The notes under the pieces were generated by a model that saw nothing but the letters and a program-made list of their open reading frames with translations, was not told the DNA's origin and made no database searches. DNA of 64,000 nt from Nemertoderma westbladi (Eukaryota; Animalia; Xenacoelomorpha): positions 1 through 64,000 of the forward strand of contig JAUCBJ010001244.1 of the NCBI GenBank assembly GCA_032718475.1. The letters run 5' to 3'. The position numbers and the translations under genes are program-made. Below are positions 26,658 through 62,029 of the stretch, piece by piece. Numbering within the stretch: position 1 is the first letter of the stretch; each line of letters begins with the position of its first letter.

Positions 26658-26865
26658 CCAATGTTGGAATATTGTTGTTCTAAATCAAAGCATCAATGTT
26701 CTCCAATGGAATTATTATTCTGAAATAAAATTCAATAAAATTAAACAACAAAATTAAATATTCTGAAATCGGGTTGGTACTGGTCAAACGACTCAGAGGA
26801 AATATGGCTTAGTATATTTCAATCCATTCCGGCAACTCTATCAGGTAGAGCCATGTTCGATAAGG

Positions 26866-28709
26866 GGATGTAGGTCAATTCGGTCCCGGACAATTCGGTC
26901 CCGGACAATTCGGTCCGGACAATTCGGTCCCAGACAATTCGGTCCCGGACAATTCGGTCCCAAAACACTAAATAAATGGGACCGAATTGTCCGGGACAGA
27001 ATTGTCCAGGACCAAATTGTCCTAGGACCGAATTGTCCTAGGACCGAATTGTTCGGGACCGAATTGTCCGGGACCGAATTGTCCAGTTCCTGATAGCAAC
27101 TTTTTAGTGCTTTTTTGATATTGGTGAATGTTCTAGAAAATTAGTAGAGATATTTGTTATGGTAGCTAGTGTTATTTACTTGCTAGAACTTTTTGAAATT
27201 TTAAAAATACTGTATTTTTTTTTATTTTTGTTATTGGTAGTGTTCGAGAACATTATTATATATTATTTATTAAGGTGTAGCTAGTGTTTTTTTTTTACTA
27301 GCTAGCATTTCCTTAAAATTATAAAAATACCTGTGAAAACATTGATATTTCAGAATTAGGCCTAAACTGTTGCTGATTATATTAATTACCAACAATATTG
27401 ATATTGATGAATAAATATGAATGAGATCCAGCTATTATCTACAGTACAGGCCACCAGAAAACGCAGATTTGTACAATTGTGAACACATTTTATCAAATGT
27501 GTACCAGTGTAATGTAATGTTGTTGAACGGGACAATTGAATATAATTGAACATAATTGAATTGGCAACAACCAAAATTTTTTCGCCAAAGGATACAATTG
27601 AATACTTTTGAAACGCTTAGTACTCTGGAAACTCTCTGTAGTTTGCCGCGAACTGTCACTCACTGCAGCTGGAAATGCGATAAGGATTTTGTTTACCTTT
27701 ATAGTGTGCGGTTAATGGTGTCTAGTAGGCAGGCCTATAGTTAGTGATGTTAAGGCATCTTCTGGTGTTACTCTGTGCCCTCTCGGTGTCAGACTAATGG
27801 CGCGACATCTCCCTGCACTGAATTAATTATTCAATGGTCTAGGCTCCTCCATCCATATATCCATCGACTCCCATACACTCCATGATCCTCCATGTGGTCT
27901 TGTATGTAGTTCTCTCTCTACCAATACAGCCCATGTCCGCAATGTTACGCCCTGGGGGCTCTCTCATCTACCTGATATCAGACATACAGGCGCACCACAC
28001 AATAAGCCTTTGTCGGTCCCAGCAAGTTAGCCAGCCTCCTGCTGTGTGATCTAGAAGATAACTCGCCATAACCTGCCAATCAGGTTACTTGAACAAATGT
28101 GTTCACATGTGATCACATTGGATGAAATCTGCTTTTTCTGGTGGCCTGTACTGTAGGATAATAATTTAGGCTTGTTATCCAACCAACAACACATACAGTA
28201 TACTTACGCAATATATAAAAAAAAAATCAGTTTTAAAAATAACCATTTTAAATACATACTATTACTAGCTAGTAAATAATTAACAAGCTCCATAAAAACA
28301 CCATAGCTACCATAAATAATAATGTTAACAAAAAAAGTAAATTTTTTTATTTAAAAAAAAAAAAAATACTAGCTAGCAAAAAAAAATACTAGCTACCATA
28401 TAATAATATATATTAAGGTTCTAGAACATTCACCATTATATAGTACCAATTAAATTTGGTCCCGGACAAATTGGTCCCGGACAATTCGGTCCCGGATAAT
28501 TCGGTCCCGGACAATTCGGTCCCGGACAATTCGGTCCCATTAATATGCATGTTTTGGGACCGAATTGTCCTAGTCAGTATCCGGACAATTCGGTCCCGGA
28601 CAATTCGGTCCCAAAACATAAAATTAATGGGACCGAATTGTCCGGGACCGAATTGTCCGGGACCAAATTGTCTGGACCGAATTGTACGGGACCGAATTGT
28701 CCTGCTTCC
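26866..28709. mobile_element. Foldback-type TIR element with 8-bp TSD (Merlin- or MULE-like)
   Basis: CGATAAGG at 26858-26865 and 28710-28717; termini GGATGTAGG / CCTGCTTCC; 15-bp GGTCCCGGACAATTC arrays at both ends; inner inverted matches 27121/28420 and 27439/28125. Confidence 0.85.
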
Positions 28710-31899: not shown

Positions 31900-32777
31900 A
31901 GTAGTAGGGTCTTGGCCGGCTCTGCGACAGTTGGACCCCACTGACACCCATTGGGTGTCATATGACACCCAATTATCACCCTATGGGTGTCATTGGGTGT
32001 CATTGGCGCCAGACTGTCTGGGTGACACCTCTCAATTAGGCTAATTAGACCCTAATTGACAGGTGTCATCAATTAATTAGTACAATTAAACCCTAACAGG
32101 TGTCATATGACTCCTAATTAGGGTTTAATTGATTATCCTAATTAATCAGACTGATTAGCGCCCTGACACACAATGGGTCGTCAGTGTTGTCCAACTGTCG
32201 CAGAGCCGGCTCAAGAGGGTGTCATAAGTGACACCGCAGCTCTTTTATTCATTAATACTTATTTATATTTAATTTTAATTATTTGCATTTTATTTTATTC
32301 GTATTTAATTCTAAATTAATTATTCATTTGTACTTTATGGGTATACAGCTCCCTTACTGGTAACTAATTACTCCAGACAGCTTTATCGTTGACCTTCGAC
32401 CCCCCAATTAGCTTTAACCAAGCAACAGCATATTAATGATAGTTGTATCCAAGCGCCCCTGCCCCCCACCCCGTGACAGCTCTGATTACTAATTACTCTT
32501 ACATATATCCAACCGCCTGCAGTTCCATAGTCTGCCGCTAGAGGGCGTATTATCTGAAAATTAACATCTTCTCTAACTTTGTTATTTTCAATTTAACTAT
32601 TTATTTGTACCTAATTTTAATTAATTATTTGTATTCTATTTGACTTTATTTATTCATTTGTACTTTATTTTAAATTAATTAATTGTATTACTTTTATTTT
32701 ATATATTGATTTCTATTTTTAGATTAATTTGGTTTTATATTACCAATGAGATCACTATGACATAATGTCTATTTTTA
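31900..32777 (+). repeat. Left terminal inverted repeat
   Basis: Reverse complement of 45193-46096 apart from a few substitutions and small indels. Confidence 0.95.
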
Positions 32778-33264
32778 ACTTTATAATGGCTATGGTATAC
32801 GGCTCCCTACTGGCAACTATCAACTACGTTCATCGGCGGGGGGCCCCTCCTCTGCCATCGCTTTTCATTAGTAGATACAACAGGCAGTGAATCTATACGT
32901 ATACCCCCCCAGGCAATTATAAATGAGTGGTCCCATCTGTTAGCAGCCCCTTTGTCTTCATTATTCAATGGCGCCAGGCGGCCTTGACTACAGCAAATCC
33001 CTATGTCGCCCAAGGCTAATGCTCAAGCGGCCCTCCATTGTTCTCGGCATAGCCGGCGTCGCTTTGCCCCTTTCCTATATCCAGGCAGCCCCTATCATAA
33101 CAATGAAGCGCCACTAATCACGCATTCCTCTCTACTAATCCCTTTCCTTTGCACCAGACCTGCTTCTGTTATACAGCCAACTCAACATAATTAGTCAAGA
33201 TGCCTACGGGGTTTCTAATATAGAATCAACAGGAGAAGTTGCCTTGGTAACCGCTTTTGCGCGA

Positions 33265-33360
33265 ACAGCCAATCAGCGGGCTTCATTTCTGCTGCTGCGC
33301 TCTGATTGGCCCATTTAAGAGACAAGGGCCTCCCTTACTAACCGAATTGCTATTTAATAC
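33265..33360 (+). promoter_or_regulatory. Putative Pol II promoter of the left transcription unit
   Basis: CCAATCAG (~33269) and inverted CTGATTGG (~33302) boxes, then TATTTAA at ~33351. Confidence 0.4.
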
Positions 33361-33470
33361 GTCCCCACTAATATATTAGGTCATTATTTCAATTGCAATT
33401 TACAATTAACATCATTTACCATTATTTTGTTTTCGAATTTAATATTATTTATTTAAGAATATTTATTTGT

Positions 33471-34280
33471 CATTTCGCCGCGTTATCACTCATCGTCGAC
33501 AACAAACTTTCCGCGTATCCGCCGCGTAATATTTCAATATTTCTAATTTCCGATACCATTCCGTTCTATCGGTTGATAAACTCTCTCCTCGTCCACGTCA
33601 ACCAACTTCCTCATCGCCACCGAACTTCCAAACTTCTTCTTTCCGTGAATATCTACTAACACCGTAAGTAAAATCTGCCTTCCATCTAGCTATACTTTCG
33701 ACGCCGCTAGCAAACAATTTACATTTAATGTCTACCGATACAACAGTATTGCAGTAGGCTCATTATTAATTACTGTCAGACTGCGGTGGTACCGATAGCC
33801 TAAACCGTGATCGAAGCATTCGATCAATAGGCTTACATCCGCCTATCTGCTTACAGTATTTTTTATCTTTTTACAAATAATCATCTTATTTTTCTAGTAT
33901 CATTTCGCCGCGCTATCGCTCATCGTCGACAACAAACTTTCCACATATCCGCCGCGTAATATTCCATTATTTCTAATTTCCGTTACCATTCCGTTCTATC
34001 GATTAATAAATTCTCTCGTCGTCCACGTCAACCAACTTCCTCACGAACATCCAAACTTCTTCTTTCCGTGAATATTTACTAACACCGTAAGTAAAATCTG
34101 CCTTCCCTTCCACCATCTGACGGTACTATCGATGCCGCTAGCAAACAATTTACATTTAATGTCTACCGGTACAACAGTATTGCAGTAGGCTCATTATTAA
34201 TTACTGTCAGACTGCGGTGATACCGATAGCCTAAACCGTGATCGAAGCATTCGATCAATAGGCCTACATCTGTCTATCTG
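33471..34280 (+). repeat. 430-bp-period tandem duplication containing putative non-coding leader exons
   Basis: Units start at 33471 and 33901; each has an ACC|GTAAGT donor (33664, 34087); acceptors TTTTTCTAG end at 33897 and 34802. Confidence 0.75.
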
Positions 34281-34809
34281 CCTGTCTACCTGACTATCGG
34301 TACCGCATCATTCGAGTTAGCCTAATGCCACTGTAGTAACGATATAGACCCTATTGAACAACAATGAATACTGCAGTTTTCATTATATATCCTACTGACT
34401 AACTGAGATCTCACACAGCGATTAGCTAAGCCTATCGTTGATTTCTATTGGTTAACGCTACCGGTACGTCTGACTTGTAGCAGACTATATCACTAGCACT
34501 ACTGCACTGACTGACTGCTGTTTATAGACCCTCTTTCCACGAATAATAACTGCCATCGCTATTGTGTCTTGGTTATCGCCACTATCTGACCGCTGGTACA
34601 CTAACACTACTGCACTAGGCACTACCGACGGCGACGGTCTGCTTTATGTTTCACTGTCTGATTGCTACAATACAGCAATAGGCCTAACTATACAAACACA
34701 GTATTGTTGCCTAGTAACCAATTAATACCTACTGTTTTACTTTATTTTTAGCAAGTATACAGTATTTTTTATTTTTTACAAATAATCAACCTATTTTTCT
34801 AGATTCAAG

Positions 34810-37800
34810 ATGCCAAGATCAACAAATAAAGTCAGCTGCCCCATCTGCGACAAAGAGACACGGAGTGATCATTTATCTCGCCACATTAAAACTCATTTCG
34901 TGCAATATAGGTGCGACTGCTGTCCGACTTGGTCTTCGGAAAAGAAGACGCTGGTTGGCCATCTTGTTTCGTGTCCTCAGGGGGGAACAGGATTTAGTTA
35001 CGTAAACGAGCCAGCCGATTGCCGCTGCGGGGATTCGCTCAGCCTGTCATCCTTTTCTGAGCATGAATGCTACACTCGACTTTTTTCGCGGAAACGCAAA
35101 ACTCCGACTACCTCCCACTCATCCCCCATCAACTCTACTCCAGAACAAGTCGGCGGCGGCGGCTCCAATAACGAACCTTCAACTTCGCGAGATTCTATTT
35201 CCCCAAACAATCCATTTCAACCACCCTCCAACGGAAGCGCACATGGACGACTGTTTACCTATAACAACGACCTCGCAGAAACAAGACTCGACGCAGAATT
35301 AACATTAAACGAAAATTTTCCACACATTCAAGAACATGTTAGTAGCCATTTACGTAGTGCCATGGGAACTTTTTTAAGAGTCTGGCTTACAATCAACATC
35401 GTAATGGAGCGTGAAACCAGCGAGGGTTTTCAAATTGAATCCTTCTGTTTTAAATCTAGCGGTAACAATAATCAAATTCTGAATAATAGCGACTTTAATA
35501 ACTGGTTTTCCGGCGCCGTCAATCGTATCGATCAACTGTTAAGTGTGTTTCTCTGCCTCGGCTCAGGTTGGCGCATAATAGCCATCGAGCGAATAACTAT
35601 TGAGATTGCGCGTTCCCAACGCAACCCCTATTTAAAGGGTCAAGGCTTCAATAATTCTAAATTATTATTAAATAAAAAATGTACCGTAAGCGTAGACTGC
35701 CCGCTGGGGGAATGCTTTAAATACGCAGTATTGGCCGCCGCAAATTATAAGAAAATTGATAGAAAACAAAATAATATTAGTAGAATTTCAACGTTTACTC
35801 CTTTCCTAAACATGTTTGATTTTTCGAATTTAAGTTTTCCGGTGGACAGAGTAACTGGTATTCCCCAGTTTCTGAAAGCCAACCCTAAATACTGCATAAA
35901 CCTTCTTTATTGGAGTAATACGGAAGAACTCTCCATTCTAAGTCAACCAGATAGCGCGCACTGTTCCGGTAAAACTGTACTAAACTTATTATTTATCGAA
36001 GCCACAAGCAAAAACCCCGCCCACTACGTAGCCATTACTAACATAGATAGATTAATAAATACAAAAGCTACTTCTACCGGCAACAAGACGCACTGCGAAC
36101 GCTGTCTCAGAGCCTTTTACACTGTCAAATCATTGGAAGAACATCGAGAGCGTTGCTATACGGGTAAACGCCAACTCGAGTATATGCCCGAAAATCTCTT
36201 GGTTAAATTTGATAGGTACGATAAGACTCTATCCCCGCCTTTCTGTATATACGCCGACATTGAAACTATTCTAGAACCTACAAACAATATTAAACTCCCA
36301 CAGAAACATATAGCTAGCGCGGCAGCCTTTTATACAGTACCAAATCAGAAATTAATTAACCCTCCTAAAACAGATGTTCAAATTTTCCGCGACGATGGCA
36401 GTAACCACGTAATGCGCGACTTTCTAACCGCTATGGAAAGTCATTGTAGGGAGTTATACGATTGGTCCATTTCTAGTACAAACACACACGCCCCCATGCA
36501 ACTCACTACTAGCCAGCAAACTGACTTTAATAACGCTACACAATGCTACGTCTGCAACTGTAATTTAACCCCCGATTCGCATAATTTAAACCTCAATGAC
36601 AATCTCAGCACCAAAGTCCGCGATCATGATCATTATAGCGGGGAGTATCGAGGGGCTGCTTGCGTCAGCTGCAACAGGAAACTTTCCCTAAAACGGAATA
36701 ATTTTTATATTATATTTCATAACTTGAGGAAATTCGATATGCATTTACTACTAAAAGAAGGAATGACCGATAGTTCTAGAACACACTGGAAAATGTCCGT
36801 AATACCAAAAAACACCGAAACTTATATTCACCTTAAAGTTAGCTTCCCAATCGATCCGAGTACACCAACAGCCAACGCTAAAGAAAGTATCTCCATTAAT
36901 TTTCTAGATTCCTATCAGTTTATGACTGCCAGCCTAGATAATCTTAGTAGCTATCTCACTAAAAATAACAGTAACCTAGCAACAGCCATACCCCATACAC
37001 TAGCTCAAATGACCCAACTCTATCCCAACATTAGCGATAACACAATAAAAAACAAGGGCGTATTCCCATATTCCTACATTCAAAATATTTCAAACCTATA
37101 CGAAACTACACTCCCCCCATTAGAAAGCTTCTATAATGATCTCAAATTGGAACAATGTAGCGCAGAAAACTATCAGCGCGCGCTTACTACTTGGGATGAA
37201 TTAAACTGTCTAACAATCTTCGACTATATGATTGGCTATTTGGTTCTAGATGTTACCCTATTGGCTGATACTTTCGAGCAGTTCCGATCCCTCTGTCTTA
37301 CTAATTATGGACTCGAGCCCGTAATGTACTTCACTGCCCCTGGATTAACTTACGACGCAGCGCTGAAATTCACGCAATCAGAAATTCAATTACTATCAGA
37401 CGCTTCCATCTACTCGGACTTTGAAACAAATATTAGGGGTGGTCTAGTATTCTTGAATACACATTCCGTAGACGCAAATATCCCCGATAAACCCGACTAT
37501 GACTCCAGTCTCCCCGAGAAATATCTAATTCCCATCGATGCGAATAACCTTTACGGCTGCGCCCTGAGCCAGAAACTTCCCCACGCTAATATTAAACTCG
37601 TAACTACCCCCATAGACCTAGCTACAGTAGACGCGAGTGGGGATACTGGTTATTATTGCATAGTTGATCTACATTACCCGAAAGAAATTCATGATTTGAC
37701 CGCCGATCTGCCTCTAGGAGCGGAGAAGATGTCAGTCCCTAAATCCTTTCTTAGCGAATACATGGAAGATCTTTGGGAGCATTACAATCTCACCGATACG

Positions 37801-38865
37801 GCTAGCTGTAGACCATACAACGATACCTGTACTAAGCTACTACTACATCAGTTTAATAAGGTTGAATACGGTATCCATATTAAGCTACTTCAACTCTATT
37901 TGAAGCTCGGTCTTAAACTTACACAAGTACATAGGGTCTACTCTTTCTCACAAAAATATATTTTCAAGGACTACATTAGTTTTAATACAAATAAAAGACA
38001 GTCGGCAAATAACCCATTCGAGGTCCTATTTTATAAGTTGATGAACAATGCCTTGTATGGGAAATGCCTCCAAAAGGTTAGAGACCGCGTTTCTTTCAGG
38101 TTATGCAATAGCGACGAACAATGCGATTTGCTCTTAGCCAAGCCCAATCACGAATCGTTTGTTGTATTTACCCCCAACTTGAGTGGTCATACTTTCACTA
38201 AAGAGGCTGTTTGCCTAAATCAGGGCGTGTTCATCGGTTGCACTATACTAGATCTATCTAAGCTACAGATGTACGACCTATTTTACAACAAACTGAAGCC
38301 TCTAGAACAAAAACTGGATTGCCAGATTCGCTGTCTAGCCGGTGACACGGATTCTCTAATGCTAAGCGTAACTAATACACCACAGCTAACCTTTCTACGG
38401 GCAATGTTTGAGGGTGGTTTCCTAGATACTTCCAACTACAGTACAACACATCCACTCTATACCATTAAACACAAAGCGGCTCTCGGCTTCGTAAAAGATG
38501 AGAGCTGCGGTTTGCAGTATAAACAGTGGGTTTTCCTTAAACCAAAGGTCTACAGTTTTCACTCCTATGATGCCCCAATCAAGAAAACCGCCAAAGGTGT
38601 ATCTAGATCGGTTGTCGCTAAGCAACTAACACACGAGGATTATGCAGACTGTTTTGTAAACGAGGCAATGCTCTTCCGCTATAACTCTACCTTCACTTCT
38701 AGAAAGCATCAAATTTTTACTGGTCATGTCTATAAGAAGGCACTAACGCTCTGGGATACGAAATCATATTGGAGTAGTAAATATAGCAGCAAACCATATG
38801 GACACTATAGCACTAAGCTTGTTAGACCGGCGAAACGAGTAGTAATCCCCCCTACTAGAATTTAA
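34810..38865 (+). CDS. Protein-primed family B DNA polymerase (Polinton pPolB), 1351 aa, with N-terminal C2H2 fingers and an endonuclease VII-like insert
   Basis: Exo motifs YADIET, FHNLRKFD, YLVLDV; pol motifs DANNLYG, KLMNNALYGK, GDTDS, KGV; CPIC..HIKTH finger; CYVC...RDHDHYSGEYRGAACVSCN. Uninterrupted ORF. Confidence 0.96.
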   Translation: MPRSTNKVSCPICDKETRSDHLSRHIKTHFVQYRCDCCPTWSSEKKTLVGHLVSCPQGGTGFSYVNEPADCRCGDSLSLSSFSEHECYTRLFSRKRKTPTTSHSSPINSTPEQVGGGGSNNEPSTSRDSISPNNPFQPPSNGSAHGRLFTYNNDLAETRLDAELTLNENFPHIQEHVSSHLRSAMGTFLRVWLTINIVMERETSEGFQIESFCFKSSGNNNQILNNSDFNNWFSGAVNRIDQLLSVFLCLGSGWRIIAIERITIEIARSQRNPYLKGQGFNNSKLLLNKKCTVSVDCPLGECFKYAVLAAANYKKIDRKQNNISRISTFTPFLNMFDFSNLSFPVDRVTGIPQFLKANPKYCINLLYWSNTEELSILSQPDSAHCSGKTVLNLLFIEATSKNPAHYVAITNIDRLINTKATSTGNKTHCERCLRAFYTVKSLEEHRERCYTGKRQLEYMPENLLVKFDRYDKTLSPPFCIYADIETILEPTNNIKLPQKHIASAAAFYTVPNQKLINPPKTDVQIFRDDGSNHVMRDFLTAMESHCRELYDWSISSTNTHAPMQLTTSQQTDFNNATQCYVCNCNLTPDSHNLNLNDNLSTKVRDHDHYSGEYRGAACVSCNRKLSLKRNNFYIIFHNLRKFDMHLLLKEGMTDSSRTHWKMSVIPKNTETYIHLKVSFPIDPSTPTANAKESISINFLDSYQFMTASLDNLSSYLTKNNSNLATAIPHTLAQMTQLYPNISDNTIKNKGVFPYSYIQNISNLYETTLPPLESFYNDLKLEQCSAENYQRALTTWDELNCLTIFDYMIGYLVLDVTLLADTFEQFRSLCLTNYGLEPVMYFTAPGLTYDAALKFTQSEIQLLSDASIYSDFETNIRGGLVFLNTHSVDANIPDKPDYDSSLPEKYLIPIDANNLYGCALSQKLPHANIKLVTTPIDLATVDASGDTGYYCIVDLHYPKEIHDLTADLPLGAEKMSVPKSFLSEYMEDLWEHYNLTDTASCRPYNDTCTKLLLHQFNKVEYGIHIKLLQLYLKLGLKLTQVHRVYSFSQKYIFKDYISFNTNKRQSANNPFEVLFYKLMNNALYGKCLQKVRDRVSFRLCNSDEQCDLLLAKPNHESFVVFTPNLSGHTFTKEAVCLNQGVFIGCTILDLSKLQMYDLFYNKLKPLEQKLDCQIRCLAGDTDSLMLSVTNTPQLTFLRAMFEGGFLDTSNYSTTHPLYTIKHKAALGFVKDESCGLQYKQWVFLKPKVYSFHSYDAPIKKTAKGVSRSVVAKQLTHEDYADCFVNEAMLFRYNSTFTSRKHQIFTGHVYKKALTLWDTKSYWSSKYSSKPYGHYSTKLVRPAKRVVIPPTRI

Positions 38866-38879
38866 TTTTATTTTTCTAG

Positions 38880-39395
38880 AATAAGAAATTGAACAACAAA
38901 ATAGAAATAACCAATAAACAGTTTACCGGAAAAAACATTGCCAAATTTGAACTAGAGAAAATTTCACAGCAAATTACAGGTCAAAGTTGCTTAAAACCAA
39001 ACATGTTTATCTACAAAGGTGACGATTCAACTATAATGCTATTTCCCAGCGGCGCAGTAACAATTGTAGGCCTTTGCAATAATTTAGCTAGTGAATTGCT
39101 TTATTTAAAACAGACTATCGGGATGCAATTACAAAATTTGAAACTTAATACCGAAACACGAACTATTATTTTTCCTAGTGTTAATTTTAAATTATTAATG
39201 AAAAAATGTGGACATCACACAATTAATAATAAAGCAATATTTATTAGCTATACCCCCGAATTATTTTGTGCGATTAGAATATATATAGGATGTGCATATT
39301 TCAGTGTATTTCATAGTAATAAAATCGTTTCCATGTGTCCAGCCGGTGAATTCCCTGAATCATTATCTATTTTACAAACTTTATTATTAAATTAG
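38880..39395 (+). CDS. Divergent TATA-binding-protein-like protein (two TBP repeats); 5' end probably spliced
   Basis: STIMLFPSGAVTIVG ~ TTALIFSSGKMVCTG; SYTPELFCAI ~ SYEPELFPGL; FSVFHSNKIV ~ LLIFVSGKVV; ~170 aa fits the TBP core; follows acceptor TTTTTCTAG (ends 38879). Confidence 0.8.
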   Translation, partial: NKKLNNKIEITNKQFTGKNIAKFELEKISQQITGQSCLKPNMFIYKGDDSTIMLFPSGAVTIVGLCNNLASELLYLKQTIGMQLQNLKLNTETRTIIFPSVNFKLLMKKCGHHTINNKAIFISYTPELFCAIRIYIGCAYFSVFHSNKIVSMCPAGEFPESLSILQTLLLN

Positions 39396-39439
39396 TTTAT
39401 TTACTATGGTATACATGAAAGTTTACTATATTATTTATT

Positions 39440-40440
39440 TTGTGTTGGTTTTTATTTTTCCGTGAGTAGGGTTTGAATCCGTGACCATCCGTGTTACCTA
39501 CTTTTTATAATTGCATTAGTAGGACTCAAACCCTGGTTTTTCCTATTTTGTGTTGGATTTATAATTGACGCGAGTAGGGATTGAACCCGTGACCTTCTGT
39601 TTTTCCTAATTTATGTTTAGTTTAGTTACTCTAGTTATTCTATGTTTACTTTTTATATTTTCATGATTAGTATTCAAACCCTGGTTTAACTTATTTCGAG
39701 TTGGATTTATAATGGTCGCGAGTAGGGATTGAACCTATGACCTCCTGTTTATTTTCCATAAAACGGGATACGAGTAGGGATTGAGCCCGTGACCTTCTGT
39801 TTTTCCTATTTTATGTTTAGTTTAGGTACTCTAGTTATTCTATGTTTAACTTATTTTGTGTTGGTTTTATATTGGTCGCGAGTAGGGATTGAACCCGTGA
39901 CCATCTGTTTATCCTATTTTGTGTTTACTTTTTATATTTTTCTATAAAACGGGATACGAGAAGGGGTCGAACATGTGACCACCTGTTTATCCTATTTTAT
40001 GTTTAGTTTAGGTACTCTAGTTATTCTATGTTTAACTTATTTTGTGTTGGTTTTATATTGGTCGCGAGTAGGGATTGAACCCGTAACAATCTGTTTATCC
40101 TATTTTGTGTTTAGTTTAGTTACTCTAGTTATTCTATGTTTACTTTTTATATTTTCATGATTAGGATTCGAACCCTGGTTTAACTTATTTCGTGTTGGAT
40201 TTATAATGGTCGCGAGTAGGGATTGAACCTATGACCTCCTGTTTATTTTCCATAAAACGGGATACGAGTAGGGATTGAGCCCGTGACCTTCTGTTTTTCC
40301 TATTTTGTGTTTAGTTTAGGTACTCTAGTTATTCTATGTTTACTTTTTATATTTTTTCATAAAACGGACACGAGTAGGGATTGAACCTACAGTATGACCA
40401 TCTGTTTATCCTATTTTATGTTTAGTTTAGTTACTCTATG
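39440..40440 (-). repeat. Composite tandem array of ~13 tRNA T-arm/B-box-like motifs
   Basis: Minus-strand units GGTCACGGGTTCAATCCCTACTCGCGACCA and CCAGGGTTCGAATCCTAA embedded in A-rich spacers. Confidence 0.85.
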
Positions 40441-43151
40441 TTAAAGTGAATTTTCACATTATATTTGTGTTAAATTATAAATTTATGTTGCAATTATTAT
40501 TTATATTATAAAAAACAGAAATATTCGAGTTATATTGCATTATATATTTTATATTGAAGTGGAATACTTTAGATGTTGGGGGACTCTGGTTTGCGAGGGA
40601 TATTTGAATGGTGAGTATAACTATCCTTGAGAGCTAGTGCAACGCTATCTCACTATGGATGGGCTTTACCACTGTACTCGCATCTGCTCTCTCATTGGCT
40701 GCTCGATGCCTCCGATTAAGGGTCTAAGACCTTCAAGCTGATTATTTGCTTAGTTTTCTAATTAGAAGGTCGTGAGTTTGGACCCTAGAAGAGCATTATT
40801 CTTTTTCCTAGCTCTTGGTTAACTCTAGCATATACTCTAGCTTCGACTCTCCCAGCTATAGTGATAGTATGCAACCTTGGGAGTTAATGTGAGTAAAGAC
40901 CAAGAGATTAGACTTCAGGCTCCCTCTATTGGTTCATTCTTCTTAACTTTATAAAATAACTCAACCCGTATTTAAAGTTTTAAAAATTATGACTTAGTCG
41001 ACTAATTTTCCAAAGTATATTATAAAAACATATAATTTCTTGAATAGATAGACCTAATAGTAATAAATAATGTGGGGGTAAATACATTTATAATTCTAAT
41101 ATAATTATTAAGGATAAATAGTCCCAATACTAATATAATTATGTAATAGTAAGCAAAATTTTTATGCGCAACCATCAGAGATTATTTGGATATAAAAGAT
41201 CACACAGCAGGAGGCTAACTTGCTGGGATCGTGTGTCGCTATGTCTTATATCGGGTGGATGAGAGAGCCCCCTCCGGCGCAACATTGTGAACATGGGCTA
41301 TATTGCTAGAGAGAGAACTACATATAAGACCATGGCCGGCCCTCATGCAGATTTAGCGGCGCCAAGGCTAACGCGGAAAAAATAAAAAGTAAACACAAAA
41401 TAGGATATACAGATTGTCATAGATTCGATTCCCTACCCCCGATCAGAGTCATTATGATCCTCCCCCGATAATTATAGAATATTTTATAGGCCGGTAGTAT
41501 TGGGGTTATTATGTGACTCATGAAAATAAATCTTAAATACAATACAAATGCTCCATCTGGGTAAAAGTGGATGCAATGTATTTACAAATCGAGTGTGGAT
41601 CAGGATAGTTTTCGTTAAGGTTTCACCTTGGTGAAGTGGAAGCATTGTATTCACATTTCGAGTACCATTTTTATTGAAACTATGGGGCATTTTATATTAG
41701 CCGATTTTTCAAAATTTGTAAAGTTTTGAGGGTTTTTATGAAAAATATAGGGATTTAGGGATTATCATTCAAATTGACTACGAAGAAGGCATAGGGATCA
41801 TTAATGGTGTGCTGAGACTCAGAAATTTTCAGGAAATTTAAATTTTTGCCCTCGCTTCGTGGAAAATATAAAAAGTAAACACAAAATAGGATATACAGAT
41901 TGTCATAGATTCGATTCCCCACCTCGATCGGGGTCATTATGACCCTCCCCCCCGATATTTATACAACATTTTATAGCCCGGTAGTATTATGATTAAAGCT
42001 ACTAACCTAAAACATAACAAAGTGCAATTATCCTATCTGTTCCAACTCGGTGTCACTAGTTTAGATAATATACTATAATAATAGTGATAGCAGATGCTTT
42101 TAATTTCGCGATGAAATAATATCAGCAAACGAGATATAGTGAATACATCATAGATAGAATTTTAAATTTTGCAGTTGCAAGGAGTGATAACCCTTAGGTG
42201 AAAGCTAAATTTGCTCTACTTTAATCAAATGGGGCATTAAAGCTACGAGTATATTTTCCTCTACATCCTCCCTCGAACTTACACAAATCTGGGCAAAAGG
42301 CAGTTGAAAGGCTATCATTTCCCATCATATGCGGTCCTCCCTTTAATGTTTCATTGTTCTATTCATAGTCGCCTTTAAGAATTTCTCGGGAAAATAAGGA
42401 TGAGGGGCTATCACTTTCAACCCCATGCGGCCCTCCCTTTCATGATTTCATTGAACTATCCATAGTACGAACAATCAAACCAAAGCCTTTGAATATCCTC
42501 GCGGCTTATCAGCGGCGCCATGGCTAACGGCTTAATATTAACAGTGAAGCATCTAAAAGACAGAGTGTCTATGATAGGACAGAACAGCGTACTTACAGCC
42601 TAGAGGTGGTCGCCCTGAAAACTTTGCTCGCCATCAATACATACAAAGCATCGCTTGATGGATAGAGTAATAGGGTGGATATTTTCATTTTGGTGAATAT
42701 AATTTATAGCATTAATCACGAAAATCGCTAAATAATATATTTTAATTAAAATCAGCTCTGATAAACAACTTGCATATCGAGTTTGTAAAGAATTCATAGG
42801 GATTGGCTGTTTATTTAGGGGTTAACATGCAAATTGATTACGAAGAAGCAGTAGGGGTCATTAATGGTATGCTGAGACTCACTTACTTCATGGCTCGCTC
42901 TCATAGAATAGATTAACTAGTAGAGAAAAATGAAAAATAACCGGTTAAACATCTTATATTTTTTAAACAATATGGGGAAACAAGAATAAATAATTTACCG
43001 ACAACATCAATATTAAATAATATAACAACAGATAAATAATTTACCAACAACATTGAAAATAAATAATATAAGAACATCAACAATAACAAAAGATATAATC
43101 AGAACAGTTTTTAATAAATAGAGACTGTTTATATTAATAGGGTTGCTGGTC

Positions 43152-44843
43152 TCAGAGAATATCTGGTTTAACCCTTTTAGGGTCCGATACTATTAATGGT
43201 TGCGATAATTTTCTCTTTAATAGTTTATTGAGATAACCTTTTCTTGGGGGGTGAGATAGATTAAGGTGTGTTTGCTGCGGGAGAAATATGCCTTCTCTGA
43301 GAGAACGTTTTAGTAACTCGAAAAGGCGCGCGATGGTAAAGTCGTTGGATAGGGTGATAGTGTTGGTATTTTTCGTATTGGTGAATATAATTTCTGCTGG
43401 TTTGTTCTCGATATGAATGTAAGGACTGAGATAGTAGTGAGAGTTGGGTGGGTTGGTTATATTTATCGCGAGAAAATCGCTGCCCCTAATATTGAGACCG
43501 TTGGTGAACTGAAAAGTGGAATTCTCTTCGTCTTTCATTAAAATGGGCCAGATACCAACATATTTTTCGGATTTGAACTTATAGATAAAGGCTGCGATAC
43601 TGCTATTTATGAGATAGCGCTGGTGATTGGGGATTGTAATCTTCTTCGGTTTGAAAGCAAATTGTATAGCCATAGCCTTGAATCTGATTAGAGCCTCGCG
43701 CGCTTGAATTGTGTTAGCTATAGTAAAGGATTCGTTAAATTTTCTCTCGGTTATCTGTAAATCAATTTCTGAATCGCTGATACAACTTTGTATCGATATT
43801 CGCTCGGAAATGTTGTCTTTGTATACGTTAAGTTCATCGTAGCAGACACATTCACTATCCTCGACGGTTGAATCGAACCATTTCAATTCGCCGACCTCGG
43901 TTGGTGTAAGAAGAATCATGCCCCTAGAAGAAACAATAGCCTTTCCATCGTCAACCTCGTAGCCATTGGTGATCGCTAAATTGCGCTCGTTCCGAATATT
44001 TGTAACAAACCCAAAAGTGCAATAGTCAAAAGCAACCCAATTTCCCGGTTTTAGGACAAGGTGAGTAGTAGGATTAATAAAAGGGCGACAGATGTTTACA
44101 TATTGTTGAAATAAATTGGCGCAGGTGACGGAAAATGTGATCCATGAACTGTTTACAGTGTCTTCCAGCTTTATTAACTCGAGTGGATTCACTGGGTTAA
44201 TACTTCCATAGGTGCCAACTCTATAATTGAATCCAAAGTAATAGGAGACTTTATTGGCGAAAAAGCATGTGAGCTCATTCAATTTCTCGCCGAAAGTGAG
44301 AACATCCTTGTCGAAAAGTTTAAAGAAACGAGTCTCCTCTTCCTCGGTCGGAGTCGACGAGTTCCAGATGAGAAGAAGAATCGAGTTTGCGATACTATGA
44401 AAATCAAATAAGCGATCATCGGAGAAGAAGGAGGTTACGAGGGTGGTTAAACCCAGTAGACGATTTGCCACATCTTGGTTGATGTTTTCTCGAATAAAAT
44501 CGACTATACTAGTTGGAATCGTAAACGTCTCGGGCGAAGTAGTTAGATTGAACGTGATTTTGTTGTCCATTTTTAAAAGTTTGAAACCGTGGTTGGAGGA
44601 ATGAAGTTTATTATCGTCGAGGGTTTGATATTGTCCATCGTGAAGTTCGTAGCAGGCGCGGAAAATAAAGTGCGCGTAGTTTGCCGGAATCGGGATGGGT
44701 TGGTTTAAGGTTGTATTTATCGTTAACGGGAAGAGTTTGTTCGCCGGATCGAAATATAGACCAAACGAGTTGTCTTGTAGCATAAACTGATTTTCGTTGC
44801 AAACCAGATCGTTGCTTGAATAGCTGATTTCTGAATGTGCCAT
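43152..44843 (-). CDS. 563-aa orphan protein of the element, basic NLS-like C-terminus
   Basis: Long intact ATG-initiated ORF in AT-rich DNA; ends KLLKRKL...PKRVKP; no family motif recognised. Confidence 0.85.
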   Translation of the reverse strand: MAHSEISYSSNDLVCNENQFMLQDNSFGLYFDPANKLFPLTINTTLNQPIPIPANYAHFIFRACYELHDGQYQTLDDNKLHSSNHGFKLLKMDNKITFNLTTSPETFTIPTSIVDFIRENINQDVANRLLGLTTLVTSFFSDDRLFDFHSIANSILLLIWNSSTPTEEEETRFFKLFDKDVLTFGEKLNELTCFFANKVSYYFGFNYRVGTYGSINPVNPLELIKLEDTVNSSWITFSVTCANLFQQYVNICRPFINPTTHLVLKPGNWVAFDYCTFGFVTNIRNERNLAITNGYEVDDGKAIVSSRGMILLTPTEVGELKWFDSTVEDSECVCYDELNVYKDNISERISIQSCISDSEIDLQITERKFNESFTIANTIQAREALIRFKAMAIQFAFKPKKITIPNHQRYLINSSIAAFIYKFKSEKYVGIWPILMKDEENSTFQFTNGLNIRGSDFLAINITNPPNSHYYLSPYIHIENKPAEIIFTNTKNTNTITLSNDFTIARLFELLKRSLREGIFLPQQTHLNLSHPPRKGYLNKLLKRKLSQPLIVSDPKRVKPDIL

Positions 44844-44959
44844 CGTGATTGTGTATCGGTAACTCGTTTAGGAAATAAAAATAAATAAATACTTTTACGA
44901 AAATAATTAAAACTTTTCAGGAAAACAAAGAGACAATGATTGGGAATGTGGTGAACGGG

Positions 44960-45062
44960 GGCTATTATAGAGGGGGCTAGAATGGGTTAGCCAATCAGGG
45001 AACAGGAGGGAGAAAAGACTGTATAATTAAACCAATCAGAGAGCAGCTTTGATGACGTCACA
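44960..45062 (-). promoter_or_regulatory. Putative Pol II promoter for the 563-aa ORF
   Basis: CRE-like TGACGTCA (45053-45060), two CCAATCAG boxes (~44991, ~45032), TATAATAG on the minus strand at ~44962-44969. Confidence 0.5.
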
Positions 45063-45192
45063 TCAGGCGAGATAATGATTGCCCAATGTTATTCAATGGT
45101 AGACAGAATGGCGCCATTGAATAACGAAGACAAAGGGGCCGCGAGAGGAAAGATTATAAAGTTAACGATAAGGGATCTATAAACCATAGAGC

Positions 45193-46096
45193 TAAAAATA
45201 GACATTATGTCATAGTGATCTCATTGGTAATATAAAACCAAATTAATCTAAAAATAGAAATCAATATATAAAATAAAAGTAATACAATTAATTAATTTAA
45301 AATAAAGTACAAATGAATAAATAAAGTCAAATAGAATACAAATAATTAATTAAAATTAGGTACAAATAAATAGTTAAATTGAAAATAACAAAGTTAGAGA
45401 AGATGTTAATTTTCAGATAATACGCCCTCTAGCGGCAGACTATGGAACTGCAGGCGGTTGGATATATGTAAGAGTAATTAGTAATCAGAGCTGTCACGGG
45501 GTGGGGGCAGGGGCGCTTGGATACAACTATCATTAATATGCTGTTGCTTGGTTAAAGCTAATTGGGGGGTCAAAGGTCAAAGGTCAACGATAAAGCTGTC
45601 TGGATATAGATAAGAGTAATTAGTTACCAGTAAGGGAGCTGTATACCCATAAAGTACAAATGAATAATTAATTTAGAATTAAATACGAATAAAATAAAAT
45701 GCAAGTAATTAATTAAAATTAAATATAAATAAATAGATATTAATGAATAAAAGAGCTGCGGTGTCACTTATGACACCCTCTTGAGCCGGCTCTGCGACAG
45801 TTGGACAACACTGATTGACCCATTGTGTGTCAGGGCGCTAATCAGTCTGATTAATTAGGATAATCAATTAAACCCTAATTAGGAGTCATATGACACCTGT
45901 TAGGGTTTAATTGTACTAATTAATTGATGACACCTGTCAATTAGGGTCTAATTAGCCTAATTGAGAGGTGTCACCCAGACAGTCTGGCGCCAATGACACC
46001 CAATGACACCCATAGGGTGATAATTGGGTGTCATATGACACCCAATGGGTGTCAGTGGGGTCCAACTGTCGCAGAGCCGGCCAAGACCCTACTACT
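45193..46096 (-). repeat. Right terminal inverted repeat
   Basis: Reverse complement of 31900-32777. Confidence 0.95.
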
Positions 46097-51470: not shown

Positions 51471-51593
51471 ATTTAATTATTTTCTTATTTTAATTAAATA
51501 ATTATTTTATATTTTGTGCGTGGGAAGGGCGTCTCGCCCTCATTCCCACCCCCCTCAGTCCAAAACTTTGGACGACTAAAAACTCTCACGTGC

Positions 51594-53650
51594 CCTGAAT
51601 ATAGACATGGCATTGTCAAATATACACAGGGAGATGTAGGTATATTGGAATCTGTCCAAGCACGCGATGCAATAGTTGGACTACCTGAATGGCATCAATT
51701 TACTGACAATCAGGTTCTTACAGTTCACGAGATGGGGAATAGTGAGTATATTGCCGACTCCATAACATCCTTTAGTATCAGAGCTCCTGAACTCCGAGTT
51801 TTTGATAAAGTAGAGGTTTTCTTTGAATGCTTTGGTATTATAGGGAAAGTACAGAAATATCATTGTCACTTAGAACTTAAGAAATGCCGATGGATTGATG
51901 GCAATAAACGTCATTGGAAACTAAGGCCTACTGGCATTCCAATAGCTGTGGAATTTCTTACATGTAAAGCTGCGAATGGGAATATTATTGCTAAGCAGTT
52001 GTTAGATGAGGTATTTTTTCCCATTGCTGCAGGACAATTACATAAGAGATTTGTAAGCTCTCTTGAACGTCATAAAAAACCTGCAATTGTTGTATTTTCT
52101 TGTATAAGTCCTTTACAAATGAGCCGTTTCTTATTTCATTTGGTATACATAATTGGCAGCTTTGAGACAGAGTTAGATCTTCTATCTGTCGAAGATATTC
52201 GGACTTCATTCGTCAGAGCAAGTCTTATATCAAATGAGAATAATGTGCCAGCTGAGGAGGTTAATAGCTTACTTCAATCATATGTTGTGAAAGAGCTCAC
52301 TTTTCAATCCATTGGAAATATTCAACTCCAGCGTTTCCTCCATCTAGCTATTACTGGTGTTAGACAATTCTTTGCTGGAGATGGTTTGCTCTATGAGGCA
52401 ATAGCTCTCTTTTATGAGGATAGTATTCGGGACCAGTGTACTGAACAAGTAGCTAATATTGAGAGTATGAGACGCAGAAATTTAGTTGATTCACTATATG
52501 AGAAAGATGGTTTGGTATTACCTGATGAGCAGGGTGTTTTACCACAGGATCGACAATTAATAACTGCTACCCGAGAATGCCCTCTTAATTGGAAACCTCT
52601 TTAGAAATCAGTTCAAGGACAATCACAGGATTCCATTGCTGAGCAACGAGATATGTTGCAGATATTAGTAAATGCTATTGATGAATATCAGCATCCATCA
52701 CACAACATTTGTCCATTCTCCATGGTTAGTAGGAGCACCAGGTGTAGGAAAGACAACAGTAATGTTGGAAGCTATGGCTTACAGCCTTGCATGTGGTCTG
52801 AATGTTATGCTCACAGCAATTACAAGTGAGAGAGCCAGAGTATTAGGGGGTGAACATCTTCATTTACTTATGCCATTTGGTGTTCATCATGGTAAAATAA
52901 CATCTACAGGATTAGCTCAAGAATGTCTCTTAAGTTTAGCAAAAAGTCCATCTAAACTTGCTTTACTTAAACGATTGAATATCATTTTCTTTGAGGAGTA
53001 TGGCATGCTTTCTTGTGAACAACTAGCAGCCATTGATCTCATACTGCATAGAATATGTAACACACAAAGGCCATTTGGTGGAAAATTATTCATAGGATGT
53101 GGAGATAGATCATTGCCAACTAGAGCCTGTTGAGGGTCGAGTAGTTTGGCTTAGTACTCATTTTATTACAACCTTTACTGTTATGGTTTGCTGACATTTT
53201 GTTCGTAGTGCAAATGATGAAGAATTGCAACTAGTTATAACAATCTTGCGCACATCAAACCCATCCATCTCCTAATTTGATTGATCAAATGATAGGAATA
53301 TTAAAGAGACGCTGTAACTTCCTTGATAGCTGGGATGATGTCCCAGATGATGTCTTAAAGGTTGTAGGAACTCGGGCTGGTGAACAGGAAGTATTACAAA
53401 AATATCTTTCACAGCACCGAAACGAAGTTGGAACAGTTTCTATCACTAGCCATGATCAGGTAACTAGTGGGAATCCTTCGGAGGATAATTGTTGGAGGGA
53501 TACCGATTCACCTAGTATTATTAATTTTATAACAAGATCATGTCGTGAGCCACTTGATTTGATTCTGTTCCTTAACCAGATCCTCCGTTTTACATTTAAT
53601 AGACAGAGTGAGCAACCAAAGTTTTCAAATGGTCAATTGTGTCTGCATAC
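51594..53650 (+). pseudogene. Duplicate copy of the Helentron-like linker plus PIF1 helicase N-half (partner 54817-56870)
   Basis: Near-identical to 54817-56870 (offset ~3223), sharing the same premature stops; Walker A GAPGVGKT. Confidence 0.9.
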
Positions 53651-54719
53651 TAAAGTAAACTAATATACTAATAGTCGCAAGTCTTTATATAAAATATACA
53701 TTACTCTAACAATAGAATAATTGTTGTAAAAATAACACAATAAAAATTTATTACTAATATAAATTAATAACTTTTTAATTTTCAGATAAAAATTCATCAG
53801 TTGGAAAATCAAAAACGTATGAATAACGAGCCCAAAAAGAAACGCCGACACGAGAATTATACAAACTACCATCGTTAACAGTATGCCACGATCTGAGGGT
53901 GGAGAAGTTTGAGGCTATACAATACACAAACTCTACATATCAGTTACTAAGTTTGTGCAGTATATAGCGAAATTGGAGAAGGCTATAAAAACGGCTATAT
54001 TTCGGATAGAATTTGAAATATAACAAAAACATTGATTTTTTAAATAATCTATTCCATCCATTATCCCTTTTAGATAAGATCTGGAATGTTTCCATTCTTT
54101 AAACTCCAAATTTTGCGTTTTTTTAACATTTAAAGTATTAATTTAAATAAACTAGATATTTATTAACTTAATCTACGCAACATACTACAATTAAGGGTGA
54201 TGGACCAGCGAAAAATTTGGTTAGTTTTTAAAAATTTAAAGGGTAAATCTAAATACTAAATTTATATTTATTTACGTAGTGTAAACACTACAACAGCCGC
54301 GAGCAATAATTAATTCTCATACATTGCAACCAAATTATGTACCACCATTAAATCTTTCTTTTTTTATACATCATTATAAAAGAAAACAAAAGTACTGCAA
54401 AATAAAATTTTGAAGTAAATTAGACTAAATTACTAGATCTAAATTTGTTGATTAATTATTATATTAAAACAATAATGGGGAACTTTTTTACAAAAACGAT
54501 TTCAACCAATCAAATTTCACATCCCAACGATCATTTTTTCGATCATTTTTTATTTATTCGTACGACTACTAGAACTGGAGATTATACAATTTGAAGATCT
54601 CCGATGACCGATAAGTCTATTCCGTGTAATCCCGCAAAGACCGCAGGTTATTCGAGTCCCGTCTTCATAATAAGATTCTAAAAGAGAAGGAAAAAAAAAG
54701 AAACAAAGACTGCAATTAA

Positions 54720-57700
54720 GTCAAGGGAAATGGGATATCCAGAGGTTGTACATAATCTTCTAGGGTTTCCATATATCCGAACCAATGTTGAATTTGTTCA
54801 GGTATCGACCCTGACTCCTGAATATAGACATGGCATTGTCAAATATACACAGGGAGATGTAGGTATATTGGAATCTGTCCAAGCACGCGATGCAATAGTT
54901 GGACTACCTGAATGGCATCAATTTACTGACAATCAGGTTCTTACAGTTCACGAGATGGGGAATAGTGAGTATATTGCCGACTCCATAACATCCTTTAGTA
55001 TCAGAGCTCCTGAACTCCGAGTTTTTGATAAAGTAGAGGTTTTCTTTGAATGCTTTGGTATTATAGGGAAAGTACAGAAATATCATTGTCACTTAGAACT
55101 TAAGAAATGCCGATGGATTGATGGCAATAAACGTCGTTGGAAACTAAGGCCTACTGGCATTCCAATAGCTGTGGAATTTCTTACATGTAAAGCTGCGAAT
55201 GGGAATATTATTGCTAAGCAGTTGTTAGATGAGGTATTTCTTCCCATTGCTGCAGGACAATTACATAAGAGATTTGTAAGCTCTCTTGAACGTCATAAAA
55301 AACCTGCAATTGTTGTATTTTCTTGTATAAGTCCTTTACAAATGAGCCGTTTCTTATTTCATTTGGTATACATAATTGGCAGCTTTGAGACAGAGTTAGA
55401 TCTTCTATCTGTCGAAGATATTCGGACTTCATTCGTCAGAGCAAGTCTTATATCAAATGAGAATAATGTGCCAGCTGAGGAGGTTAATAGCTTACTTCAA
55501 TCATATGTTGTGAAAGAGCTCACTTTTCAATCCATTGGAAATATTCAACTCCAGCGTTTCCTCCATCTAGCTATTACTGGTGTTAGACAATTCTTTGCTG
55601 GAGATGGTTTGCTCTATGAGGCAATAGCTCTCTTTTATGAGGATAGTATTCGGGACCAGTGTACTGAACAAGTTGCTAATATTGAGAGTATGAGACGCAG
55701 AAATTTAGTTGATTCACTATATGAGAAAGATGGTTTGGTATTACCTGATGAGCAGGGTGTTTTACCACAGGATCGACAATTAATAACTGCTACCCGAGAA
55801 TGCCCTCTTAATTGGAAACCTCTTTAGAAATCAGTTCAAGGACAATCACAGGATTCCATTGCTGAGCAACGAGATATGTTGCAGATATTAGTAAATGCTA
55901 TTGATGAATATCAGCATCCATCAACAACATTTGTCCATTCTCCATGGTTAGTAGGAGCACCAGGTGTAGGAAAGACAACAGTAATGTTGGAAGCTATGGC
56001 TTACAGCCTTGCATGTGGTCTGAATGTTATGCTCACAGCAATTACAAGTGAGAGAGCCAGAGTATTAGGGGGTGAACATCTTCATTTACTTATGCCATTT
56101 GGTGTTCATCATGGTAAAATAACATCTACAGGATTAGCTCAAGAATGTCTCTTAAGTTTAGCAAAAAGTCCATCTAAACTTGCTTTACTTAAACGATTGA
56201 ATATCATTTTCTTTGAGGAGTATGGCATGCTTTCTTGTGAACAACTAGCAGCCATTGATCTCATACTGCATAGAATATGTAACACACAAAGGCCATTTGG
56301 TGGAAAATTATTCATAGGATGTGGAGATAGATCATTGCCAACTAGAGCCTGTTGAGGGTCGAGTAGTTTGGCTTAGTACTCATTTTATTACAACCTTTAC
56401 TGTTATGGTTTGCTGACATTTTGTTCGTAGTGCAAATGATGAAGAATTGCAACTAGTTATAACAATCTTGCGCACATCAAACCCATCCATCTCCTAATTT
56501 GATTGATCAAATGATAGGAATATTAAAGAGACGCTGTAACTTCCTTGATAGCTGGGATGATGTCCCAGATGATGTCTTAAAGGTTGTAGGAACTCGGGCT
56601 GGTGAACAGGAAGTATTACAAAAATATCTTTCACAGCACCGAAACGAAGTTGGAACAGTTTCTATCACTAGCCATGATCAGGTAACTAGTGGGAATCCTT
56701 CGGAGGATAATTGTTGGAGGGATACCGATTCACCTAGTATTATTAATTTTATAACAAGATCATGTCGTGAGCCACAGGAATTGATTCTGTTCCTAAACCA
56801 GATCCTCCGTTTCACATATAACAGGCAATCTGTGCAACCTAAATTTTCTAATGGTCAATTGTGTATTCTTACGAAAGTGCCAGCTGATTGTGATGATACA
56901 CTGGAAGCAGCTGTTGTCCCTAAAGGATGCCTTCGGATAAACCCTGAAAGTGCAAATACATGGCCATCAGTTAAATTATCCCAATGTAAACAGCCCCTCC
57001 TACAGTTGTTGGTTATGGCAAGAATGCGATAATGGGAAGACGTATACATACAATTCCCATTACATTACTTTTGTGCAGGCACCATACATGGTGTTCAAGG
57101 TCAAGATGCGCCATCATTAGCAACTCAAATAACTATTGATATTAAGAATAAATATAAGATTTGGCTGAAAATGCAAATAACCACGCTTATTTCTAGGGTA
57201 TTCGATCTTGGTAACTTTTCATTTGTTGGAATCATGGAGGAAACTTTCAATTGTATACGAATCTTGATGAATAAGAAATCGCCAAATCAAGATTATATTA
57301 AACACTTATTGAGAGGTCTCAATGTTCTTGTCGCTGGAGTATCCCAAGATCCTATAACATTTGAAAAACATCCTTTCTGACCATACTATATAGATATTCC
57401 TTCTTCTTATACAGGATTTGTCTATATGTTGATAAGTATTATGTTCCGTGATAAAGTTATATAGGTCAAACTATAGAACTAAAAGCAAGGTTGCTGGCTC
57501 ATCAGAACAAAACAGGTTCTGATTTTACAAGGAATTCTGCATATCACCCTTGGGCTCTGTATGCCTTTGTCAGTGGCTTTCCAGGTGAAGGAAAGGGTGA
57601 CCTTAATACTCGATACCGTAAAGAATTTGAAACTGAATGGCATGCTCTTAATAATACAGGAAAAGCTGGCGGGGATACAATTGTTGGGCGAGAGTATGTT

Positions 57701-60667: not shown

Positions 60668-61010
60668 AGTAGTAGAGTCTTGGCCGGCTCGGTGACAGTT
60701 AGACCCCACTGCCTGGCGCCATACTGTCTGGGTAACACCTCCTAATTAGGCTAATTAGACCCTAATTGACAGGTGTCATCAATTAATTAGTACAATTAAA
60801 CCCTAATAGGTGTCTTATGACTCCTAATTAGGGTTTAATTGATTATCCTAATTAATCAATCCGATACGCAATGGTGTCAGTGTTGTCTAACTGTCGCCTA
60901 GAGGGCCAAGAGGGTGTCATAAGTGACACCGCAGCTCTTTTATTTATTATTGCTTATTTATTTGTACTTAATTTTAATTAATTATTTGTATTTAATTTTA
61001 CTTTATTAAT
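60668..61010 (+). mobile_element. Left TIR of a second, diverged member of the Polinton-like family
   Basis: AGTAGTAGAGTCTTGGCCGGCTC... colinear with 31900-32300 (taattaggctaattagaccctaattgacaggtgtcatc; agagggtgtcataagtgacaccgcagctc). No right TIR seen in the window. Confidence 0.9.
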
Positions 61011-61168
61011 TAAACTTTATTTATTTGTATTAAATAGAAATGGAGATCAAATTAACTAAATAAATGAATACGAGTCCATATTCTCTATAACGAATACAAG
61101 TAAACGTTTTCTGATACATAACGTCTAAAACTGTTGTGGGTCCTTACGCCCTCTTGCCTCTGATCCTA

Positions 61169-61562: not shown

Positions 61563-62029
61563 ATGGCGCTGACGGGATATGTTAACATAGTTCTCAGTAT
61601 AAACAGATGCAGTATAAAGGTCTGGCATCTTTCGGCATCATCTGCTCTGCAATGAGCGAGCTCGGTATACTAGACTGGGCCCAGCTGGCGACTCTCCTTC
61701 CCGCAGAGTTTTCCGGCATAGAGAAGACCTGCCGGGCCTTAATTCAGCATGGCCCCTACATTGGCTATATGGCGGGTCACTCTAACCTGGTCCGATCTTC
61801 CATGTACCCCCTGCTACTCACCATATGCAGGTCCTTAGGATCTAGTGAGTCTCAAGAGAGATACCGTGGAGGAAAGAACGATCGACTCTATATTGGAGCT
61901 CGATCATGGTTGACAGCTGCTAAGGACAAAATAAGGAATGCGGGCGCAGCAATGGCTGGTGCTAATGTCGAGGGGGAGGAGGTCGCCGAACGTGTCATGG
62001 CGTTTGCTCGTGAGTATCACCACAAGTGA
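61563..62029 (+). pseudogene. Putative endogenous negative-strand RNA virus (Mononegavirales-like) nucleoprotein fragment
   Basis: KGLASFGII...AEFSGIE...HGPYIGYM...VRSSMYPLLLTICRSLG parallels the paramyxovirus N core AGLASFIL...GELSTLE...APYM...FSAGSYPLLWSYAMGVG; frameshift at ~61590. Confidence 0.55.

Follow-up and report, generated by a model that had tools for sequence, protein, structure and literature searches.

A minus-strand array of tRNA T-loop/B-box-like units beside the TBP-like gene of a Polinton derivative in Nemertoderma westbladi

In the available part of its description (PMC10702118), the snake satellite sSat3 is a tandem repeat whose 67-nt unit consists of the 3′ portion of a SINE head, box B included. 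B boxes also function outside Pol III genes: in the accessible text of the two papers concerned, TFIIIC-bound B boxes of the IR repeats act as a boundary at the mating-type region of S. pombe (PMC2908685), and ETC sites bind TFIIIC with boxes that are conserved between species (PMC3395662). For Polintons/Mavericks, an (AGT)2 end motif and a 6-bp target site duplication (TSD) are given as hallmarks in the sections available (PMC8097293), and an adintovirus study marks a TBP-like gene in its figure legends (bioRxiv 10.1101/697771).

The window analysed here, a stretch of 64,000 nt from Nemertoderma westbladi (assembly GCA_032718475.1, contig JAUCBJ010001244.1, positions 1 to 64,000), contains an array with features of both satellite and boundary (Table 1). 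As in sSat3, so far as its accessible description extends, a short tandem unit resembles the 3′ portion of a tRNA-related head, containing box B but not box A, and occurs at low copy number per locus in variable unit number. SINE-derived satellites are taken to comprise at least four tandem units with part of a tRNA-related head, and 13 units are present here. Unlike sSat3 as described in the same text, our array is part of a mobile Polinton derivative, with which it spreads, and its units are heterogeneous (52–111 bp), with higher-order duplications and no identified parent SINE. Like the IR repeats of S. pombe and the ETC sites, the array has B boxes but no A box; unlike these sites, as the available text presents them, it is internal to an element, its conservation is not significant and TFIIIC binding is only predicted. 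Tandem SINE-head fragments with box B are known already; within the literature accessible to us, which leaves out most subscription papers, searches returned neither a B-box array inside a Polinton nor a Polinton anti-silencing device of this kind.

The host element is a high-copy Polinton derivative. The relationship to Polintons proposed in an earlier note on this DNA was upheld by a protein-primed family B DNA polymerase (pPolB), long terminal inverted repeats (TIRs) with (AGT)2 ends and a 6-bp TSD, which the element has in common with Polintons, Mavericks and adintoviruses as portrayed in the available parts of the literature (PMC8097293; bioRxiv 10.1101/697771). Unlike in full Polintons, an orphan ORF (ORF563) and a non-coding mosaic, 3.7 kb including the array, replace the integrase, ATPase, protease and capsid genes. 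No ORF for any of these four proteins was found in the element, and tblastn with ORFs of at least 120 aa from five relatives found only TBP outside pPolB. The TSD is clean but the integrase gene is absent, so integrase is likely to be supplied in trans. The pPolB had 930 homologues, the best at ~40 % identity, and the named relatives in the list were from cnidarians. ORF563 matched no Pfam family, no PHROG under E 0.1 and nothing usable in Atlas, and gave one weak match (E 1.7e-4) to a repetitive 736-aa protein. Other copies of the element were judged from contigs of four DNA runs (X1–X4), which represent one organism and at most three samples, one of these possibly the source of the window itself. 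Contigs over ORF563 occurred in each of the four runs, and single X3 contigs over the element's genes had depths of 1000–2000, compared to 22–31 for diverged contigs; summed contig depth was not taken as copy number. A 431-bp tandem duplication (90 %) lies upstream of pPolB within the element (33470–34281), and older fragments of the family lie outside it at 5995–6487, 9056–9559, 10454–10641 and 60714–61029, consisting of pPolB pieces at 80–94 % and one TIR piece at 84 %. Elsewhere in the window there is a Helitron_like_N match (12417–13184), a Helitron-like 3.2-kb tandem duplication with PIF1-helicase pieces (51516–57032) and a 140-aa ORF (61607–62029, plus strand) which, judged by eye, we take to recall a nucleoprotein fragment of a negative-strand RNA virus and for which nothing was found in Pfam, PHROGs or PDB.

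Table 1. Coordinates of the element, its genes, the array and related features (window positions unless a locus of a relative is named)
Feature	Position	Strand	Remarks
Polinton/Maverick derivative	31900..46096	.	14.2 kb; (AGT)2 ends; 6-bp TSD GGTAGG on both sides
Left terminal inverted repeat	31900..32784	+	~0.9 kb; 92–100 % complementary
Right terminal inverted repeat	45186..46096	-	~0.9 kb
pPolB	34810..38865	+	1351 aa, open frame; Pfam PF03175, E 2.5e-18
TBP-like open frame	38880..39395	+	Pfam TBP E 0.002, below cut-off; 30/30 Atlas matches TBP, score 0.95, a result that carries its own warning of low recognition
Complex minisatellite (array)	39435..40445	-	13 units and 2 box-less leaders; nested 494-bp and 186-bp duplications
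B-box 11-mers 1–5	39469-79, 39522-32, 39577-87, 39670-80, 39725-35	-	
B-box 11-mers 6–10	39777-87, 39885-95, 39963-73, 40071-81, 40164-74	-	
B-box 11-mers 11–13	40219-29, 40271-81, 40377-87	-	
Single unit	39947..40030	-	sole unit with A-box-like 12-mer (a single mismatch; 55 nt upstream of position 52), intact core B box 39963-73 and TTTT
Non-coding repeat-fragment mosaic	40450..43150	.	where full relatives have protease, capsid, integrase and ATPase genes
Inverted block copy (leader and T-loop)	41372..41501	+	box at 41422, not core-consensus; in 130-bp duplicated piece
Second inverted block copy	41858..41988	+	box at 41908, not core-consensus
ORF563	43152..44843	-	563 aa; converges on pPolB-TBP
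TBP-like genes of relatives	L025:7815-8402, L026:9129-9746, L030:5194-5740, L033:4029-4595		
TBP-like genes of relatives (rest)	L049:8966-9505, L055:4552-5133, L076:12181-12702		

The neighbour of the array was confirmed as a TBP homologue, as had been proposed, by a profile built from six relatives alone, which scored the window TBP at 48.3 bits compared to 8.8 for the best of 1000 shuffles. Used as the sole query, the window TBP found no homologue and no solved structure, and single-sequence fold predictions of TBP and ORF563 were useless (pLDDT 30.5). Its first in-frame ATG, at 39003, falls within the homology, which begins ~38 codons earlier; for the stretch before this ATG (38880–39003) a non-AUG start, splicing or read-through from pPolB are candidates. 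We compared 99 pPolB-related loci (19 viral and the best 80 of 360 metagenomic), which total 693 kb and of which 20 are at least 10 kb long; no loci were retrieved from viral_contigs with the window pPolB alone or with the TBP alignment. TBP was found above the Pfam cut-off in seven of these loci, several of which are complete Polinton-like genomes. No locus among the 99 exceeded two near-B-boxes per kb on one strand (52 had none, 44 had one and three had two); the density in the window array is 12 per kb. In TBP-bearing relatives the next gene follows TBP within 100 bp, with no repeat array between, and none of the six relatives with 2 kb of downstream DNA had an array beside TBP, there being at most one near-box per strand. 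TBP therefore does without the array in these relatives, and the coupling of the two suggested in the earlier note gained no support, although the relatives are distant (pPolB identity at most ~45 %) and a coupling specific to this lineage remains compatible with them. On firmer ground, the sequence comparison shows TBP beside pPolB to be an old conserved gene of this Polinton clade, one that has no need of the array.

Each unit of the array joins an A-rich leader to a tRNA variable-loop/T-loop (B-box) motif. All 13 of the co-oriented minus-strand motifs previously listed are present, each within ~5 nt of its listed place, and their B-box 11-mers span 39469–40387 of the window sequence. The strict B-box pattern used was GGTTCRANYCC, which matched eight times in the 64 kb, seven of them inside the array; shuffled windows gave an expectation of 0.41 and a maximum of three, and 0/100 shuffles reached eight. 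Seven boxes are strict, five have one mismatch and one (39670-80) has two, while the core B-box consensus is fitted by eight and failed by five in the window copy. The reading of the motifs as T-loop/B-box-like was correct, with GGTC standing at variable-loop distance. The 13 boxes are not independent, because they arose through nested duplications (494 bp at 90–94 % and 186 bp at 92–93 %), and the right question is therefore how tRNA-like one ancestral unit was. Calculated post hoc, the chance of a B box in one ancestral 100-bp unit is ~2.5e-4, and that of a B box plus GGTC at variable-loop distance is ~4e-7, making tRNA or SINE ancestry likely. The motif string quoted in the earlier note as recurring in several units, running from GGTC to CCA, was exact in two (40229 and 39735), whereas its interpretation as having a CCA-like tRNA end did not hold. 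TCGCGACCA ends four units and places CCA at tRNA positions 72–74 instead of 74–76, and it was rejected as a tRNA 3′ end for this wrong register; to our knowledge, CCA is not encoded by eukaryotic tRNA genes. Two leader blocks (40043 and 39857) have lost their boxes by deletion; these, and the block copies on the plus strand (41422 and 41908), were missed previously.

The remainder of a tRNA was sought with several methods. ARAGORN found no tRNA gene, and at lowered thresholds returned only noise, mostly on the wrong strand, which was discarded. No unit of the array has a tRNA 5′ half, as the first reading had it. Rfam over 38500–41500 gave nothing in the array and one snoRNA (E 0.19) outside it, and single units cut at the variable loop matched weakly as 5′-truncated members of the tRNA clan (E 0.65 and 2.5). 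The T-stem pairs at 5/5 positions in just one of the 13 units, and the 5-nt insertion of this unit has the lowest cover in other copies. From the sequence of the unit we infer a tRNA or SINE ancestry, although a parent SINE was not found.

The array is a family trait, present in other copies of the element, as judged by contig cover (30/30 bins of the array in X1–X3 and 26/30 in X4), by a 432-bp X4 contig that links the 3′ end of TBP to the first two units, and by pPolB-like depth (2021 for an X3 contig over the first unit, compared to 1542 and 1975 over pPolB). Absence from other family members, which had been named as grounds for dismissing a function, was therefore not observed. The connection between the TBP end and array units persists in contigs with ~12 % divergence (X1, X2 and X3), and a joint in X2 and X4 (35643>38873) skips most of pPolB, revealing a subfamily in which this deletion leaves TBP and the array region in place. 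Shorter variants of the array were represented by six joints (39347>40173, 39426>40141, 39446>39891, 39533>39908, 39934>40244 and 40058>40207). The inverted block copies sit in an insertion of lower cover, which run X4 hardly covers, and loose contig ends at 39801, 39903 and 39940 run into other flanks. We infer that the block stems from a dispersed repeat, of which no full SINE was seen; two degenerate unit patterns had no match in metagenome_contigs or viral_contigs. Two foldback-like blocks of inverted 15-bp repeats were also observed (26848–27084 and 28439–28702), and a loose end in X2 joins a foldback-like 15-bp repeat to the array at 39455.

The earlier note proposed comparing the conservation of B-box cores and spacers; an excess at the cores was not supported. 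On the homologous core (-27..+15), specified B-box columns changed 0.75–1.0 times compared to 1.2–1.4 elsewhere (p 0.13–0.29). Wider alignments that include ragged edges gave p 0.025 to 0.12 (0.025 with 15 units and 0.053 with 13 units); the first test, at p 0.025, was set aside because it counted these edges, and the core-only test was preferred. Positions 55, 58 and 62 are invariant in 15/15 block copies, and variation is greatest at 57, 59 and 60, degenerate positions of the B box; changes at positions 57 and 56 are also what CpG decay yields. Leaders and spacers were duplicated together with the boxes, and differences between duplicates fall on B-box columns at the chance rate (2/17 with 1.8 expected and 2/13 with 1.2 expected). 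In the contigs of X1–X4, cover is far lower over the short unit with the broken box at 39670 than over its intact counterpart at 40164. At 39528, within the broken box 39522-32, the contigs of every run disagree with the window, a difference missing from the later listing. In both cases the broken box looks like rare or private decay. Listed cross-copy differences within boxes were 0/7, with 0.9 expected; only seven were listed because contigs fitting two places are shared among units. No significant signal of selection on the B boxes emerged from these sequence tests, which have little power.

The array is, on balance, probably the tandem expansion of a captured tRNA/SINE-like fragment of ~50 bp, carried as a passenger of the Polinton derivative. 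The lineage would have lost its virion/integrase module, repeat fragments filling the gap 3′ of TBP, with the fragment (A-rich leader, variable loop and T-loop) captured at or after this loss. Slippage or unequal exchange in the course of replication by pPolB may then have caused expansion in tandem, and the array was likely carried to many genomic sites with the element. By analogy with ETC sites, as described in the accessible text of PMC3395662, the eight intact boxes would be predicted to attract host TFIIIC but not to lead to productive Pol III initiation, this binding being a by-product and not a selected function. A quite different origin, in which the tRNA likeness is incidental and the units are a non-tRNA dispersed repeat or A-rich TATA-like sites for TBP or the ORF563 protein, seems quite improbable. 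It would fit the weakness of the Rfam scores for single units, a leader that is as conserved as the box and the inverted copies, both of which are less tRNA-like than the array units, with the direction of change unrooted; however, the low post hoc probability that a B box and GGTC would stand at exactly the variable-loop spacing weighs against it, as does the close packing of TBP and the next gene in array-free relatives. One of the two functions offered in the earlier note is a Pol III small-RNA cassette, comparable to the VA RNAs; such a cassette would produce short RNAs antisense to the end of TBP. The note's observation of TTTT after several motifs on a strand poor in such runs was accurate, with four on the minus strand compared to 29 on the plus strand, all four standing 23–24 nt after boxes, and the cassette could also draw on five TATAAAAA (TATA-like) motifs on the same strand (1.1 in shuffles) and on an A-box-like 12-mer that five long units carry 55 nt upstream of position 52, with a single mismatch. 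However, the 12-mers and the TATAAAAA motifs are each copies of one block, and 4–7 % of shuffles yield such a 12-mer by chance; two of the four boxes followed by TTTT are broken, and just one of the 13 units has all three parts. The 11-mer A-box pattern, as given in the available text of PMC11724288, was absent from 13/13 units at a usable distance (30–60 nt upstream of the B box), and folding of six units was no better than that of shuffles in 6/6 (z -1.2 to +1.2). The array shares B boxes and T-runs with adenovirus VA genes and other viral Pol III cassettes, known from a related virus lineage, yet VA genes occur in one or two copies, contain a proper A box and yield RNAs that fold strongly, none of which holds for the window array. 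The cassette is therefore poorly supported and highly improbable, and a Pol III RNA product from the array is unlikely.

The other function offered in the earlier note, a TFIIIC barrier, corresponds to a selected TFIIIC-only cluster, which by analogy with known boundaries might shield pPolB-TBP from heterochromatin or block read-through between pPolB-TBP and ORF563; we regard this as possible, but unlikely. The core consensus is kept in eight of the 13 boxes of the window and probably in ten in most copies, variation tracks the degeneracy of the B box, and the boxes are co-oriented without an A box, as in a TFIIIC-only site. The array also begins ~40 bp past the TBP stop, between converging genes, and persists in diverged and pPolB-deleted copies. 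Against such selection, excess conservation was not significant on the core comparison, boxes have been deleted, and a change at position 54 that breaks both boxes is common to two duplicated units in a well-covered stretch. Array-free TBP-bearing relatives (0/6 with an array in 2 kb of downstream DNA) also count against it, and a barrier to heterochromatin entering from the flanks should stand at the ends of the element, yet the TIRs contain no strict or one-mismatch B box. The combined proposal that a captured tRNA fragment was turned into a mobile B-box boundary, which by the same analogy might shield pPolB-TBP from silencing or read-through, is unlikely.

In summary, if the array is a passenger, it would represent a route for the birth of a box-B minisatellite within a virus-like transposon, followed by its spread to many loci. 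Each such locus would receive several potential TFIIIC sites, and host chromatin could be affected by them regardless of any selection. If the array were instead a barrier, it would constitute an anti-silencing device of a Polinton.
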